A stretch of 27,742 nucleotides of DNA from a virus: the UHGV virus genome UHGV-0038079; one strand, written 5' to 3'. Positions 6,823 through 27,201 of the stretch are shown piece by piece (position 1 is the first letter of the stretch; each line of letters starts with the position of its first letter). The notes under the pieces are model-generated. The model ran no database searches. It was not told the origin of the DNA and saw nothing but the letters and a program-made list of their open reading frames with translations. The position numbers were made by a program, and so were the translations under genes.

Positions 6823-7473
6823 TCACCTTCCCAGAAATAAATTGCTCAGATACCCATCAACAGTGGAGATACCTTCTTGCGCCATCTGTGGCAGCGATTT
6901 CAGAATGGAATTATTCGGCGGCACCGTTGTTTTGGTGCCTGTATTCTGCACAGCAGACGTTCCGACCCCCTCGGTCATATTGTTTTTCGAGGCAACCCTG
7001 ATTGACTGCGTGGAGGTAATAATCACCTCCCTGAGGGTAAGGGTCGCCAGAAGCACATTCTCACTACTCTTGTCAGTCGTCACCTCCAGCGTTTTTATCA
7101 ACATATTGTTGTAAATACGCTTGCCGGTTGTCACATCGAAAGGAATACGATCCCGCTGCAGATTAAGCAACTCCTGATACAGTTCTTTCGGGCTCAGACC
7201 CAGTAAACTGGTAGCCGTCAGGTTACTGGCAAAATCAAGCAGCGATCCGCCTCCGGAAAAACCGGTTTCCATCACAACCTCAGAAGGCCGCCTGAATGCG
7301 TGTTCTGATATATAACCAGCGCCCTCACCACTGGCACCAGCATTCGTGGGCTGTTCAACCGGATGTTCCGTAATTTCCAGGGCGTCAGTGTGCTTTTCGG
7401 TAATAACCACATCAGGAATAATGATTCCTATTGAGCGGGTTCGCTGCTGCAGTAAAACAGATAAAAAGTCCAT
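6823..7473 (-). CDS. Tail/baseplate protein, 216 aa
   Basis: ORF track; start overlaps the stop of the upstream gene. Confidence 0.4.
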   Translation of the reverse strand: MDFLSVLLQQRTRSIGIIIPDVVITEKHTDALEITEHPVEQPTNAGASGEGAGYISEHAFRRPSEVVMETGFSGGGSLLDFASNLTATSLLGLSPKELYQELLNLQRDRIPFDVTTGKRIYNNMLIKTLEVTTDKSSENVLLATLTLREVIITSTQSIRVASKNNMTEGVGTSAVQNTGTKTTVPPNNSILKSLPQMAQEGISTVDGYLSNLFLGR

Positions 7474-8084
7474 TACGCAGGTCCTTTCAATTGCTGTACC
7501 GCCCTGGCATTTACAGCCCCCTGCTTGTCAGCGATCAGATTAGCCGCCTCCTGAGGGTTGTTAACTCCATGAACATTTATAACAGTCTGCTGGTTAAGGC
7601 TGCCAGCGGCGGCCTGATACGCCAGCGGGCTGTTCCAGTTTGAATAACCTTCTTTGCGCGCCATCGACTGCATCAATGCTCCCATAGTCTGGGGATCTGT
7701 AAGATTCAATATTGCATTCGGTGATACTCCCATCCATTTCGCAACATCCTGTGCATACTTTTTCGGATCGTTGTTATCACCTGCCGGGGCCCAGGTACTG
7801 ACAATATCCTGAATAGTCTGTAATGCCCGTCCGGTTGTTTTCCCGGTAAAGTAACGCATGAGTTGGTTTTTCATCGCCTCCCAGCCCTCAAGAGCTGATT
7901 CGAAAAACCGGAACCCTTTACCGCTCACCGGGCGAATGTTCCCGGGGTTATTGTTGCGATCAGCAAGAGTACCGCCGCCGGGGATGTCTGCCTGGACGTT
8001 GGAGCCATGCACTACACCGTTACTCTGTCCCTGCCGGATAACTTTACCGGGTCCCCGTGCAACCAGTCCATCCACGCAGGCCAT
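7473..8084 (-). CDS. Tail protein downstream of tape measure, 203 aa
   Basis: ORF track; GAGG SD 9 nt upstream of ATG 8084; 5' end overlaps the tape-measure 3' end by 73 nt. Confidence 0.4.
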   Translation of the reverse strand: MACVDGLVARGPGKVIRQGQSNGVVHGSNVQADIPGGGTLADRNNNPGNIRPVSGKGFRFFESALEGWEAMKNQLMRYFTGKTTGRALQTIQDIVSTWAPAGDNNDPKKYAQDVAKWMGVSPNAILNLTDPQTMGALMQSMARKEGYSNWNSPLAYQAAAGSLNQQTVINVHGVNNPQEAANLIADKQGAVNARAVQQLKGPA

Positions 8085-9478
8085 TCACGGACCTCACTGA
8101 CATCCCTGCGTCCGATATCTGTTTTTATACCAATAGCAGCCAGCGTGTCGCCGATAATTCGCTTCGTATACCTCAGTGAAGATTTTGCGCTATCGGCAAT
8201 ATTTTCTCTGTCACTAACAATATAACCCGCGTAAAGCGCCCACAATTTAAGCCAGGGTGGGACCGGCAAACCAGATATTTTCCCGAAAGCCCCCAGAACC
8301 TTGGATACCCAGACACCCGCGATGAATGTACCGAGGATTTCCAATGATTTTTGCCAGCCGCCAACACCATCTTTTAGTTCCAGAAGGTGATCACGAAGCC
8401 AGGTGATCGCATCCTTCGCTTTATCTATTGCCGGTTGCCATTTTTCCCAGTCGATAAGGCTGTTACCGCCTTCTTTCCATGTTTTGTAGTCTTCCCACAA
8501 GAGACCGAGAGCCACGATCAGACCAGTAATCAGCCCTATAGGTGACATCCAGAAAGTAGAGTTAAGTATCCGCATGGCGACAACCAGACCGCCGATAACC
8601 TCTATCAGGGTTTTCGTTTCGGCATCCAGTTTCCCCCACCACTCGATGATATCTCCGACACCATCGACTATCCGAAATGCAACCCGCCCGACTATCTCAC
8701 CCAGCCAGAGGATCCCCTTTATGACCTTTGTGATGGTGACTTCAATTTTGGGAAAATTTTCAATTATCTTTTTGCGCAGGTTATCAATCTGCCCCGCCAG
8801 TCCGTCCGCAAGATTCGATCCGATTTTGTCCCGCGCCATCCCGGCCATTTCACCGAGCGATTTCAGCGAGGTCATAAACCGGTTTGACGATAAGGCAGCC
8901 TGATCGGCATTAAATCCGATCGCTTTCACCATTTCTGAATACTGAGCGCTGAACTGCCCCACTCCGCGACGCATAGCCATCAGGGTATTTTCGTCAATGC
9001 CCAGCATCTGCGCATACTGGTTAGCCCGGTAATACGGCATGCCGCTGAGTTTCTGTCCAACGCCCGTAAAGATAGCGGCCATGTCACGCATGTTACCGCT
9101 GGCATCACGGGTCTGTACGCCCAGGCGATTCAGAAAGCCTTCTGCTCCGGGATTGTTACGAATAAACCGGGAGAGGTTTTCCAGAGAAGATCGCGCAGCG
9201 TCCACGCTGCCGCCAACCTGCGAAACCGCATAGCCAATAGACTGAATTCCCTGGACTGTCGCGCCGGTGCGCTGTGACGCCCAGTAAAGATTATCCAGGC
9301 CGGAGGCGATCTTAGCCGTGAAGGCCACCACGGACAGCGCAGCTCCTTCAACAGCCAGCCCCATTTTGATGACATTTGCAGTTGTACCGGCGAGGACAGA
9401 ACCGAATTTTTTCGCTCCTGCATCATCCACACTGAAGCCAAGCGAGACGAGGAAATCTTTAATAGTCTCGGCGTTCAT
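8012..9478 (-). CDS. Tail tape measure protein, about 488 aa
   Basis: Long protein with a hydrophobic central segment downstream of the tail chaperone; start moved to ATG 9478 (MNAETIKDF, SD GAGAGAGGA) instead of the track start 9499. Confidence 0.65.
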   Translation of the reverse strand: MNAETIKDFLVSLGFSVDDAGAKKFGSVLAGTTANVIKMGLAVEGAALSVVAFTAKIASGLDNLYWASQRTGATVQGIQSIGYAVSQVGGSVDAARSSLENLSRFIRNNPGAEGFLNRLGVQTRDASGNMRDMAAIFTGVGQKLSGMPYYRANQYAQMLGIDENTLMAMRRGVGQFSAQYSEMVKAIGFNADQAALSSNRFMTSLKSLGEMAGMARDKIGSNLADGLAGQIDNLRKKIIENFPKIEVTITKVIKGILWLGEIVGRVAFRIVDGVGDIIEWWGKLDAETKTLIEVIGGLVVAMRILNSTFWMSPIGLITGLIVALGLLWEDYKTWKEGGNSLIDWEKWQPAIDKAKDAITWLRDHLLELKDGVGGWQKSLEILGTFIAGVWVSKVLGAFGKISGLPVPPWLKLWALYAGYIVSDRENIADSAKSSLRYTKRIIGDTLAAIGIKTDIGRRDVSEVREWPAWMDWLHGDPVKLSGRDRVTV

Positions 9479-9713
9479 TATCCTCTCTCCATTTCTCAAT
9501 GCGCCGCTGGTTATCCGCTTTTACCGCCAGATGGTCATTCAAGAGAGCAATATCGTACAAATCGACAGAGCCATCTTTAAGTGCTGTATAAGGAATTAAC
9601 CCGGCATCAACCGGGTCAAGGAGATAAGACAGCCCGTCAGGCAGGCTGTTGAGGGTTAGCCCTGAAGCTGGTCCGGCGTCGCGCTGGTAGGGATCACGGG
9701 CAAAAAATTTCCC
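9459..9713 (-). other. Predicted -1 programmed frameshift site and C-terminal extension of the tail assembly chaperone (G/GT-like)
   Basis: Minus-strand run G GGA AAT TTT TTG (plus 9701..9713) near the 3' end of the chaperone ORF; the -1 frame stays open for about 80 codons across the chaperone-TMP spacer and stops at 9461..9459, just inside the TMP start. Confidence 0.55.
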
Positions 9714-10108
9714 AGCGAATCGGCGACCACCCGCGCCACCAGCTGCAGCATGACCAGCAGGTCAATATCATCAAACATCAGTTCGCCCTGGGTAAATACC
9801 GGCACCCATCCGTCCATATGACGCCGCAATACCACCGCAAGACAGGGATGAATAATCGCGTTGGTGTCTTCTTCGGTCAGGGAAGACAGTTCCTCAGCGA
9901 TACGCGGGAGCATGGTTTCAAACACCGGTTTTAACTGCTCGAATTTCACGGTGTCGATTTTGCCGTCAGCAGGCAAACGGGAGCGAATGCTCCCGAAATC
10001 TGACATCATTCCCGCCAGTACCGGCAGAAGTTTGAGGGTCACTTTCAGTTGGTCAAAAACGCTGAGTTTTGCCACGCGATATTTCACGCCTTTGATTTCG
10101 AATTCCAT
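9656..10108 (-). CDS. Tail assembly chaperone, 150 aa
   Basis: ORF between tail tube and tape measure; acidic; carries the slippery site near its 3' end. Confidence 0.6.
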   Translation of the reverse strand: MEFEIKGVKYRVAKLSVFDQLKVTLKLLPVLAGMMSDFGSIRSRLPADGKIDTVKFEQLKPVFETMLPRIAEELSSLTEEDTNAIIHPCLAVVLRRHMDGWVPVFTQGELMFDDIDLLVMLQLVARVVADSLGNFLPVIPTSATPDQLQG

Positions 10109-10111
10109 GTA

Positions 10112-10552
10112 TTAAAACTCCCCGAGAACCTGGTCAATCTTGCCGCAGTCAAACACCCACGGCATCGTATTACCGGTTTTAGCGTTGGCGTTATCCGGTT
10201 GTTTCTGGAACGCAACACTGCGTGCCGTGATGATGTCGCCGCTGACCTTGTTGCGGATCACGATAACGTTATTCCCCCATGTTGCAGAAGACTGGCTCTG
10301 TGCGTTATACGCCAGCGACAATTTTTTATTTGTCGGTGATGTCTTCAGAAGGTTAACGGTAATCGTCCCGCTTTTATCTGCATGGAGGCTGTGCATCACT
10401 TCGCCATCAGCACCGATGGTCATGGTGTTTTTAGGACCGCCCATCGCAACCACAATCCCCTCCTCAGAACTTGCCGAACCGTACCCGAGGTCAATCGAAC
10501 CGGTCGGCCCGGTCAGCGTCGCAGTGACATCCATAAAAGAATAGGTAGACAT
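10112..10552 (-). CDS. Tail tube protein, 146 aa
   Basis: Small protein immediately downstream of the sheath gene; conserved sheath-tube order. Confidence 0.6.
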   Translation of the reverse strand: MSTYSFMDVTATLTGPTGSIDLGYGSASSEEGIVVAMGGPKNTMTIGADGEVMHSLHADKSGTITVNLLKTSPTNKKLSLAYNAQSQSSATWGNNVIVIRNKVSGDIITARSVAFQKQPDNANAKTGNTMPWVFDCGKIDQVLGEF

Positions 10553-10562
10553 TCACTTCCCC

Positions 10563-11708
10563 TTAGCGAACAACGTTAATCTGTACGTCAGCGTAATGAA
10601 CCGCGCCTGCAAGTTTTATTGCAGCCTGAATCACCGGAGCCTTACGGGCTTCACGTTCTGATTGTGCCTGTTCATCCAGCGGCTGGGCGTATACGTAATA
10701 ACCTTTGGGCAGCGTGTCACCTGATGACAACTGACCAAGGTCGCCCCCGTTCCATACGCCCGGAGCAATCAGTCCATTCTGAACGGCCTGATCCAGTGAT
10801 TTTTCAACATTTGATAACAGTCGGGTAATACCGGCTTCAGTCTGGGGAACTTTCGTGGTGCTGGTATAAAGCAGGTTATAAAGGTTGGTCTGCACATAAT
10901 TCTGTAACCAGTCCAGGCCGTGGCGTTCATCAAAGAAATCGCCGTTAGCCATCACTCCCTGCTGGAGGATAGCTGTATCATTCTGGTAGTACACGAACAC
11001 ATTGCAGTTTTTTGCATCAAGTGCCGATGCCTGGCTGACTGTCAGTGTTTCATACCCGACACCCGGCTCCTGCTTAAACTTGAGCGTAATCGCGGTATTA
11101 CTGCCATTGAAATTAACCGTGAATGCCCGGCCAAATGCAGATAACGCAGCGTATTTATTACCCGATGAATACTGAATAAAACTGCGTGAATATCCGGCGG
11201 TTTTCAGTTTTGATGCCAAATCATCGCTGGATTCAGTCTGCAGGCATTTTTCATCGCTTGTCGTAATCGCCAGAATACGGCTTACAGAAGAGGATTCGAT
11301 CGCCGCAGCCACTTTCAACCAGTCTGCATCCGGAATATCTGCATCGTCTGCAATCCCCAGCCCATACCATGAAGTATAATCAAGCATGGCATTCACAGCC
11401 TGCTCCAGCGTCTCAGGCGTGGCCTGTTCGCTGTCTCCCTTCGTTTTCACCCAACGACCAACAAAAACCTCCTGAGGTTTCGGTGATTGAGAGAAAAACA
11501 CCTGCGCAGCCTTATATTCTGGTGATTCCAAGCCAAAATCTTTTCCAATATCTTCCGCGGCAGAATAACGGCGAATGCGCTCACTTACCGGAATAATTGT
11601 GGACGGGCCGAGAATGAGTAATGCACCAAAATTTCGCCCTGATGCTGCACGCGGCGACATGATCACATCAACATTAACAACGTTTGATACAGGCAAGCCC
11701 TGTGCCAT
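10563..11708 (-). CDS. Contractile tail sheath protein, 381 aa
   Basis: Size and position upstream of tube/chaperone/TMP. Confidence 0.65.
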
Positions 11709-25667: not shown

Positions 25668-26067
25668 GGCTTTCACCATTAAAAAGTCGCTTGTAAGCAT
25701 CAATGTCTCGTTTTGCTTCACCAAGCTTTCGTCTTAATTCCATGTTTTCTGATTCAAGCTTTTCCATGTCTTGCTGGTATCGATCGCGGTGTTCTTTCCA
25801 TGCTTTTTGATACGCCTTCATGTATGTCATGTTGGCCTTTCTCTTTGCCTGACGAACTGCGTGGTGGTTTTTAACAAACCAGTCAGGGTCGTTAAATGCT
25901 GCTCTGGCGCATGTATACCAATAATTTGTTGCCTCCCTGTTTAGCCAATAAATACTGATAAATGGCAACCGGATAGACACCATTTTTCGTTGTGACTCTT
26001 TCTCGCCAAACATGTGCCCTTTTTTGATGCTAAGGCCAAATCCAGGTTGAATTAAAAGCATTGTCAT
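25600..26067 (-). CDS. Hypothetical protein, about 155 aa, between ninE and ninF
   Basis: ATG 26067 overlaps the ninE stop (ATGA); predicted coiled-coil segment ([31 protein letters not shown]) and Pro-rich tail; 3' end overlaps ninF by 68 nt out of frame. Confidence 0.45.
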
Positions 26068-26240
26068 TTCCTCGCACGATGTCTTAGCCACCGGATATCC
26101 CACAGGTGAGCCGTGTAGTTGAAGGTTTTTACGTCAGATTCTTTTGGGATTGGCTTGCGTTTATTTCTGGAGCGCTTCGTTGGAAGGTATTTGCAGTTTT
26201 CGCAGATGATGTCGGTGATACTTCGTCGCTGTCGTCTCAT
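26064..26240 (-). CDS. ninE: NinE-like protein, 58 aa
   Basis: [47 protein letters not shown] matches lambda NinE as recalled; ATG overlaps the dam stop (ATGA). Confidence 0.75.
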
Positions 26241-26764
26241 GCTGCCCTCCTGACGCCCTGCCCGATCGCCATCAATGCCGCTTTGGATACGGTAGTAAAC
26301 ATCCGTCGAGGACTGATGAACGGTCGCCAAATCAGCAGCATGGAACCTTTGCTGTTTCCCTTCTTCTCCAGCCCTGTCGATGGTTCGATAAAATTAATCC
26401 GTCCATCAGTGATGATGCGAACTTCGTCAACACTCTCCAGAGCCTTGCTGAACCATCCGACAGACATATCCTCTGGCACAAGCATCACTACCGTCTGTCG
26501 CTGTTGCATGCACTGCTCAGCGGCTTTTTCCACCCACGGCCTGATATTGCTGTACGGTGGGTTATTCCAGATTGCACCGTGGCTTATCCACTCAGAATTT
26601 AGCGCGTCGTCAGCCTCAGTTAGCCAGTGAGCGCACAGAGCATTTTTGTCGCTCGCTGCCGAATCCAGCCAGAATCCAAACTCAATATCCAGTGCATCAA
26701 AAAGCCAAAGCGGCGTTTGCCAGCAGTCCTTGTCGTGTGCTGGCGTATTTGATTTGATAGTCAT
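26237..26764 (-). CDS. Phage-type DNA N6-adenine methyltransferase (orphan Dam family), about 175 aa
   Basis: [16 protein letters not shown]-terminus and NPPY catalytic motif (IWNNPPYSN); ATG 26764 overlaps the ninB stop. Confidence 0.8.
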
Positions 26765-27201
26765 GCAGCCCGATCTCCCCATCGCGCTTTCCATTCGAGA
26801 GCCAGTCGCGCTTCGTCTGACCACTTAACGCCACGCTCTGTACCGAATGCCTGTATAAGCTCTAATAGCTCCGCAAATTCGCTTACACGCATCCTGCTGG
26901 TTGACTGGCCTATTACCACAAAGCCATTCCCGGCAAGGTTAGGAACAACGTCCTGCTGCTTTAATGCTGCGGTAAACACACACTTCCAGCTTTCTGCATC
27001 CAGCCAGCGCCCATGCCATTCAACCTGACGAGAGACGTCACCAAGGCAAGCCCAAAGCTTTCGATTCTGGTCTAAGCTGCGGTTGCGTTCCTGAATGGTT
27101 ACTACGATTGGTTTGGTTGGGTCTGGAAGAATTTGCTGTACCGCGTGAATAGCGTTTTGCTGATGTGCTGGAGATCGAATTTCAAAGGTTAGTTTTTTCA
27201 T
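26761..27201 (-). CDS. ninB: NinB recombination protein, 146 aa
   Basis: MKKLTFEIRSPAHQQNAIHAVQQILPDPTKPIVVTIQERNRSLDQNRKLWACLGDV... essentially the lambda NinB sequence as recalled; start set at MKKLTF (27201). Confidence 0.9.
   Translation of the reverse strand: MKKLTFEIRSPAHQQNAIHAVQQILPDPTKPIVVTIQERNRSLDQNRKLWACLGDVSRQVEWHGRWLDAESWKCVFTAALKQQDVVPNLAGNGFVVIGQSTSRMRVSEFAELLELIQAFGTERGVKWSDEARLALEWKARWGDRAA

Follow-up and report, generated by a model that had tools for sequence, protein, structure and literature searches.

In the 27,742-nt viral genome UHGV-0038079 (hereafter the window, numbered from its first letter), the minus strand carries the tail sheath, tube, tail assembly chaperone and tape-measure genes in that order, and the chaperone stop (ending at 9656) is separated from the tape-measure ATG (9478) by a 177-nt gap. 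The question raised by this locus is whether that gap is a mere spacer or a coding segment entered by frameshifting. An earlier note on the DNA favored the second possibility, reading the region as the frameshifted chaperone pair of long-tailed phages. We conclude from comparative sequence evidence that a chaperone–DUF6889 fusion is very probably produced here by programmed -1 ribosomal frameshifting, after the pattern of lambda G/GT and P2 E/E+E'. The proposed layout, and with it the explanation of the gap, is supported by gene order, the invariance of the slippery run, a coding -1 frame and the lack of a start codon for that frame.

The 0-frame product is a recognizable chaperone, matching Pfam Phage_TAC_15 (PF21822; E = 4.2e-30; 105.3 bits, gathering cut-off 22; positions 1-121 of the 127 in the model) as well as phrog_1688, 'tail assembly chaperone' (E = 8e-63). 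Near the 3' end of its open reading frame (ORF), which terminates with TAA at 9658-9656, the minus strand reads CTG (9715-9713) GGA AAT TTT TTG (9703-9701) in the 0 frame (9715..9701), the sequence quoted in the earlier note. Two slippery heptamers had been reported within this stretch. Both G_GGA_AAT and T_TTT_TTG are indeed present, but the count was one short, as A_AAT_TTT had been missed. The run, GGGAAATTTTTTG, thus consists of three consecutive, overlapping in-frame heptamers of the X_XXY_YYZ type, and the last 150 nt of the chaperone ORF hold no others in frame. A scan of the window's minus-strand genes gave 26 in-frame heptamers in 8647 codons (0.003 per codon), with this run as the only cluster of three. 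The clustering exceeds chance. Given the encoded residues G-N-F-L, the codon set GGA-AAT-TTT-TTG has a probability of 0.006 under the window's own codon usage. At three places in the scan, namely this run, 6574 and 26360, a heptamer opens onto a -1 frame extending beyond the 0-frame stop; at the latter two, the -1 frame appears simply to enter the next ORF.

Ahead of the run, the nearest stop in the -1 frame is at 9764-9762; from there the frame is open across 9761..9462 and ends with TAA at 9461-9459. The +1 frame is full of stops. The -1 frame overlaps the chaperone ORF by approximately 100 nt and the tape-measure gene by 20 nt. The frame had been said to stay open for about 80 codons from the run and to stop 6 codons into the tape-measure gene; it spans 82 codons after the slip, and its stop falls in tape-measure codons 6/7. 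Its translation matches Pfam DUF6889 (PF21829; E = 1.6e-20; 73 bits, gathering cut-off 23.9; positions 2-40 of the 40 in the model) over extension residues 39-77, and phrog_4364 (E = 2.2e-23) over residues 27-79. The spacer does measure 177 nt as claimed, but its description as otherwise non-coding does not stand. The evidence says that it is coding, with DUF6889 as the C-terminal domain of the predicted frameshift fusion. The -1 ORF of the window lacks both ATG and GTG, and the first TTG in it falls within the DUF6889 domain. No promoter-like site was found in the 177-nt gap.

To place the locus in context, 138 related loci were gathered from annotated phage and Escherichia coli records, one genome per species, and IMG/VR. 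Frame openness was counted in the 134 loci carrying the motif, and product conservation was assessed in 61 distinct full-length relatives. The locus is present in 338 of 5426 complete E. coli genomes (best match, 98.9% identity) and is a common, widespread enterobacterial prophage; related phages include Salmonella SEN34, Yersinia YP3 and several Klebsiella phages. Conservation of the -1 frame in relatives, which had been proposed as a check, is borne out. The frame is open for 185-197 nt beyond the 0-frame stop in 132 of the 134 loci, uninterrupted by stops, and the +1 frame closes early. In the two exceptions (L102 and L035), indels appear to have cut the -1 ORF short, at 59 and 68 nt beyond the 0-frame stop, and these are likely decaying prophages or sequencing errors. 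As a separate observation, most relatives terminate the extension with TGA (after EDNER) where the window has CGA (9470-9468, minus strand). The window's extension is consequently 3 residues longer, ending in ERRDY, like a minority of relatives.

Conservation of the -1 product begins with the very first codons past the run (FFAR-T/D/E-P-Y/R-Q-R-D...), still ahead of the 0-frame stop. In the 10 codons that follow the run, the -1 frame shows a mean pairwise identity of 0.575, versus 0.367 for the 0 frame. When nucleotide variability is split by -1-frame codon position (1/2/3), the values are 0.21/0.21/0.44 within the overlap and 0.20/0.18/0.40 downstream. Third-position variability therefore tracks the -1 frame already within the chaperone overlap, indicating that the -1 frame is coding there. 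No start codon in the -1 frame is conserved across the 61 relatives; 10 have none at all, and in most of the rest the earliest is at residue 55 or beyond. In two loci (L005 and L030), a -1-frame TAG lies two codons ahead of the run (GAT AGT CTG GGA), so the shift cannot happen upstream of the run. Taken together, the conserved run, a -1 product conserved from that point, the lack of a start and the upstream TAG indicate that translation enters the -1 frame at the run.

Conservation of the run itself was measured in 82 distinct 150-nt contexts from relatives, with chaperone identity down to 51%. Third positions are conserved at 1.00 in GGA, 1.00 in AAT, 1.00 in TTT and 0.98 in TTG, whereas the third positions of the 31 upstream codons average 0.735. 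Neighboring Ala (GCC/GCT/GCG), Asp (GAT/GAC), Ser (TCG/TCA/AGT/AGC) and Leu (CTG/CTA/CTC/TTG) codons vary freely. This comparison shows the run to be under selection at the nucleotide level, its synonymous sites being essentially invariant in relatives. A few natural variants exist. The G ahead of GGA is lost in a few lineages (CTA, CTC or CTT), and the last codon is TTA in L049 and TTC in L055. In L027, the run reads AAT ATT TTG, which breaks the T run and leaves G_GGA_AAT as the sole heptamer; the -1 ORF of this relative is intact and conserved. No one heptamer is singled out as the slip site by these variants.

At the level of sequence, then, four things are established: the anatomy of the locus, -1 coding from the run onward, the absence of an independent start and nucleotide selection on the run. 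By the same measure, the locus displays every feature of a G/GT-type chaperone pair. It lies between the tube and tape-measure genes, an overlapping -1 ORF reaches approximately the tape-measure start, this second ORF has no translation start of its own, and a conserved in-frame heptamer sits inside the overlap. The coordinates are collected in Table 1.

Table 1. Features of the chaperone locus and its neighbors in the window.
Feature	Position	Strand	Description
Slippery run G GGA AAT TTT TTG	9701..9713	minus	read directly
Heptamer 1, G_GGA_AAT	9713-9707	minus	
Heptamer 2, A_AAT_TTT	9710-9704	minus	
Heptamer 3, T_TTT_TTG	9707-9701	minus	
GGTGG	9727..9731	minus	putative; Shine-Dalgarno-like candidate upstream stimulator
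Tail assembly chaperone gene, 0 frame	9656..10108	minus	ATG start, 150 aa, 'G-like' product
-1 extension	9459..9707	minus	82 codons + TAA; 'T-like' part of predicted 216-aa fusion
DUF6889 domain in -1 extension	9477..9593	minus	Pfam PF21829
Tape-measure gene, first ORF piece	8012..9478	minus	phrog_2276 'tail length tape measure protein', E = 1.6e-187
Tube gene	10552..10112	minus	KPP10_Orf10/DUF3277
Tail sheath gene	11708..10563	minus	DUF3383, phrog_205

Under the proposed mechanism, most ribosomes would translate to the 0-frame TAA and release the 150-aa chaperone. A minority would slip back one base on G GGA AAU UUU UUG, read approximately 80 further codons in the -1 frame through the apparent spacer, and terminate 20 nt into the tape-measure gene, yielding a 216-aa fusion of the chaperone body with the DUF6889 domain. 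A slip at heptamer 1 or 2 would give ...GNFFARD..., and a slip at heptamer 3 would give ...GNFLARD..., with 216 aa in both cases. By analogy with lambda and P2, the fusion would be made at a low fixed ratio, and both products would be needed for tail assembly yet absent from the virion. The same analogy suggests that the chaperone part binds the tape-measure protein and that the C-terminal domain recruits the tube protein.

We then considered which signals might promote the shift. Single-sequence folds of the 61 and 101 nt after the run were no better than shuffles (z of +1.39 and -0.65), the consensus fold of 20 diverse relatives reached -0.45 kcal/mol with no covariation, and an Rfam search gave no match. 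No conserved downstream structure was thus found, and the proposed mechanism involves none. A 10-bp hairpin (TTGACCCGG...CCGGGTTAA) followed by a T-rich stretch does occur at 9619..9596 on the minus strand, inside the -1 ORF and approximately 85 nt past the run. It was rejected as a stimulator, being a terminator-like pattern of chance frequency that is kept only in lineages retaining the residues D-P-V-D-A-G. Upstream, the GGTGG lies 14 nt from heptamer 1 and 17 nt from heptamer 2, and is found 11-14 nt upstream in 80 of the 82 distinct contexts. Shine-Dalgarno-like stimulators of the class GGNGG are experimentally effective at distances of 6-17 nt, and the GGUGG of the transcript may promote slipping through pairing with 16S rRNA.

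The intrinsic strength of the three heptamers can be gauged from published -1 frameshift percentages in E. coli, given here for no stimulator / IS911 signals / IS3 pseudoknot (PMC4066793, Table S3). The values are 0.069 / 0.112 / 1.05% for GGGAAAU, 0.070 / 0.355 / 11.4% for AAAUUUU, 0.118 / 0.247 / 0.77% for UUUUUUG, and 0.277 / 3.80 / 43.0% for the lambda heptamer GGGAAAG. In the same work, cognate A-site re-pairing performs best, and the motifs named there as good include R_RR.U_UU.Y (PMC4066793). Because its A-site re-pairing is cognate (UUU to UUU), and given these reporter values, A_AAU_UUU is the most responsive of the three. A case can also be made for the others, as U_UUU_UUG is the proven P2 site and G_GGA_AAU is the only one left in L027. 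The three heptamers look redundant or additive. A tentative extension, which we regard as rather doubtful, is that the run acts as a composite slip site, in which three heptamers cooperate with upstream GGUGG:16S pairing in place of a downstream structure, the fixed ratio of chaperone to fusion is set by summed weak events, and two isoforms (GNFF... and GNFL...) are made. If true, the run would represent a bacterial -1 frameshift signal of distinct architecture, and Pfam DUF6889 would gain a function as the 'T' domain of a frameshifted chaperone.

The downstream neighbor has a peculiarity of its own. The tape-measure ATG agrees with the NCBI annotation in a related record (L001) and is preceded by a ribosome-binding site, GGAGAGAGGA, at 9490-9481. 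The gene is broken into ORFs of 488 and 203 aa (9478..8012 and 8084..7473, minus strand). Compared with the intact 668-aa tape-measure gene of E. coli EC20017429 (98% identical), the sole indel is one missing G in a G run near 8057 (GGGGG to GGGG). Either the sequencing erred at this homopolymer, or the prophage copy carries a mutation that inactivates the gene.

Existing annotation treats the -1 region in several ways. The NCBI pipeline calls a separate 54-aa 'DUF6889 family protein' starting at CTG (L001 2569-2733 and L141 269-433, equivalent to window 9632..9468), and this coding sequence (CDS) is found in most E. coli genomes among the matches listed (338 carry the locus). Another record (L005) has a 50-aa ORF called in the -1 region, and several phage records have nothing annotated in the gap. 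In Klebsiella phage Mulock (MN098327; CPT_Mulock_014/015), a joined CDS named 'tape measure chaperone frameshift product' spans the homologous run; the Mulock genome announcement does not mention the frameshift. Our literature search returned no paper mentioning DUF6889 and none linking DUF3383/DUF3277 phages with a frameshift, and no NCBIfam model matches the fusion.

The annotated 54-aa and 50-aa ORFs raise the possibility that DUF6889 is encoded by a small gene in its own right, with translation beginning at a dedicated (perhaps non-canonical) start or through re-initiation downstream of the chaperone stop. The start annotated for it is a CTG, however, in a frame without ATG or GTG in the window and with its first TTG inside the domain, and no start is conserved in relatives, 10 of 61 having none. 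Moreover, conservation and the codon-position pattern begin at the slippery run, upstream of the 0-frame stop, and a separate gene leaves the synonymous-site invariance of the run unexplained. We consider this explanation very improbable and the stand-alone DUF6889 CDS probably a systematic mis-annotation of the frameshift extension. A fusion could also arise by transcriptional slippage, with RNA polymerase adding one U at T6 and the edited mRNA being translated normally. The homopolymer run is present, and a variant with seven T (L139) gives an exact in-frame fusion, so a one-base insertion would be productive. Against the idea, runs of approximately eight or nine are usually needed before the E. 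coli polymerase slips efficiently, and T6 falls short of this. In addition, GGA AAT belongs to the conserved unit though a mechanism acting on the T run does not need it, and L027 breaks the T run yet retains G_GGA_AAT and a conserved -1 ORF. Slippage of the polymerase is, in our view, likewise very improbable.

Several points do weigh against a programmed frameshift. Without stimulators, all three heptamers lie near the approximately 0.055% background in E. coli reporters (PMC4066793). The lack of a conserved downstream structure may mean that efficiency is low or dependent on other context, and the upstream GGTGG signal is confounded by the conserved residues R-V-V. Finally, the 1-nt tape-measure deletion may mean that this prophage copy makes no tails at all. 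The weakness of the unstimulated heptamers, barely over background, and the broken tape-measure gene would also fit an open frame that exists by chance or as an evolutionary relic without current function. That explanation is at odds with purifying selection on the -1 frame (61 distinct full-length products), with the invariance of the run and with the match of the -1 frame to a curated Pfam family (E = 1.6e-20), and we assign it a negligible probability. A programmed -1 ribosomal frameshift is thus the strongly favored account of the locus.

The seven-T variant deserves separate description. In L139 (1895-1912; Logan SRR23924998), T7 replaces T6 in the run, giving a 213-aa in-frame fusion (P0001; ...GNFFAYTPYQ...) that corresponds to the predicted product and illustrates its appearance. 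As 'Rosetta stone' evidence for the fusion it was set aside as weak, being a single Logan contig in which T7 may be a homopolymer or assembly error rather than a genuine fusion-only mutant. An AlphaFold model of P0001 is of low confidence (mean pLDDT of 58, below 50 in the T part); when this low-confidence model was compared with the PDB by Foldseek, no hit fell below E = 1, and a sequence search of the PDB was likewise empty. The scan also drew attention to position 26360 on the minus strand (ORFs 26824..26237 and 26330..26064), where an in-frame GGGAAAC heptamer leads into a 96-codon -1 frame that continues 57 codons past the 0-frame stop and coincides with an 88-aa ORF. An NPPY motif in the product of the gene carrying this heptamer suggests, by eye only, a DNA methyltransferase. 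Here the -1 frame is probably just the overlapping downstream gene.

These findings add little biology, as long-tailed phages were recognized decades ago to frameshift their chaperone genes, and the shift is already annotated in one homologue. Their practical value lies in annotation, where the -1 part is usually reported as an independent 'DUF6889 family protein' or left as a gap. Useful by-products are the reassignment of DUF6889 to the extension, the recognition of a conserved triple-heptamer run and a candidate Shine-Dalgarno-like stimulator. An invariant triple-heptamer run without downstream structure also offers a clean natural test case of how weak heptamers attain useful frameshift levels in their natural setting.

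Among known systems, phage Mulock carries a true homologue, with approximately 58% chaperone identity, the same GGGAAATTTTTTG run and a -1 DUF6889 extension ending at the tape-measure start, and the frameshift is known there from database annotation alone. E. coli dnaX and the IS911/IS3 elements resemble the locus in a possible upstream Shine-Dalgarno-like stimulator (GGUGG here, 14 nt away, in a putative role). Their signals pair a heptamer with such an element, with or without downstream structure, and no hairpin or pseudoknot was found here. Lambda makes G and GT at approximately 30:1; the partner of the G parts is the tape-measure protein and that of the T domain the major tail protein, and the virion contains neither G nor GT (PMC5009743). 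As in lambda, the pair lies between the tail tube and tape-measure genes, and a startless -1 extension ends at the tape-measure gene. The lambda slip site, G_GGA_AAG, differs from heptamer 1 (G_GGA_AAU) by one base, but that base places AAU rather than the highly shift-prone AAG in the A site (1.05% for GGGAAAU versus 43% for GGGAAAG with the IS3 pseudoknot), and the site here is extended by two more heptamers. Unlike lambda, the phage has a contractile tail, as its sheath gene indicates, and its families are Phage_TAC_15 and DUF6889, with no detectable similarity to lambda G or T shown.

Phage P2 provides a parallel for the shift without a hairpin. Its E/E+E' shift takes place at TTTTTTG with no hairpin, producing the fusion from a single start (PMC3091744), and its frameshift efficiency is 2-3 fold above that of lambda (PMC5009743). 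Both loci belong to myovirus tail gene clusters, the P2 site is identical to heptamer 3, and neither has a downstream hairpin. The protein families are different, and the products differ in size, E and E+E' being 91 and 142 aa versus 150 and 216 aa predicted here. Whereas P2 uses the T run alone, the T run of the present locus is preceded by an equally conserved GGGAAA.

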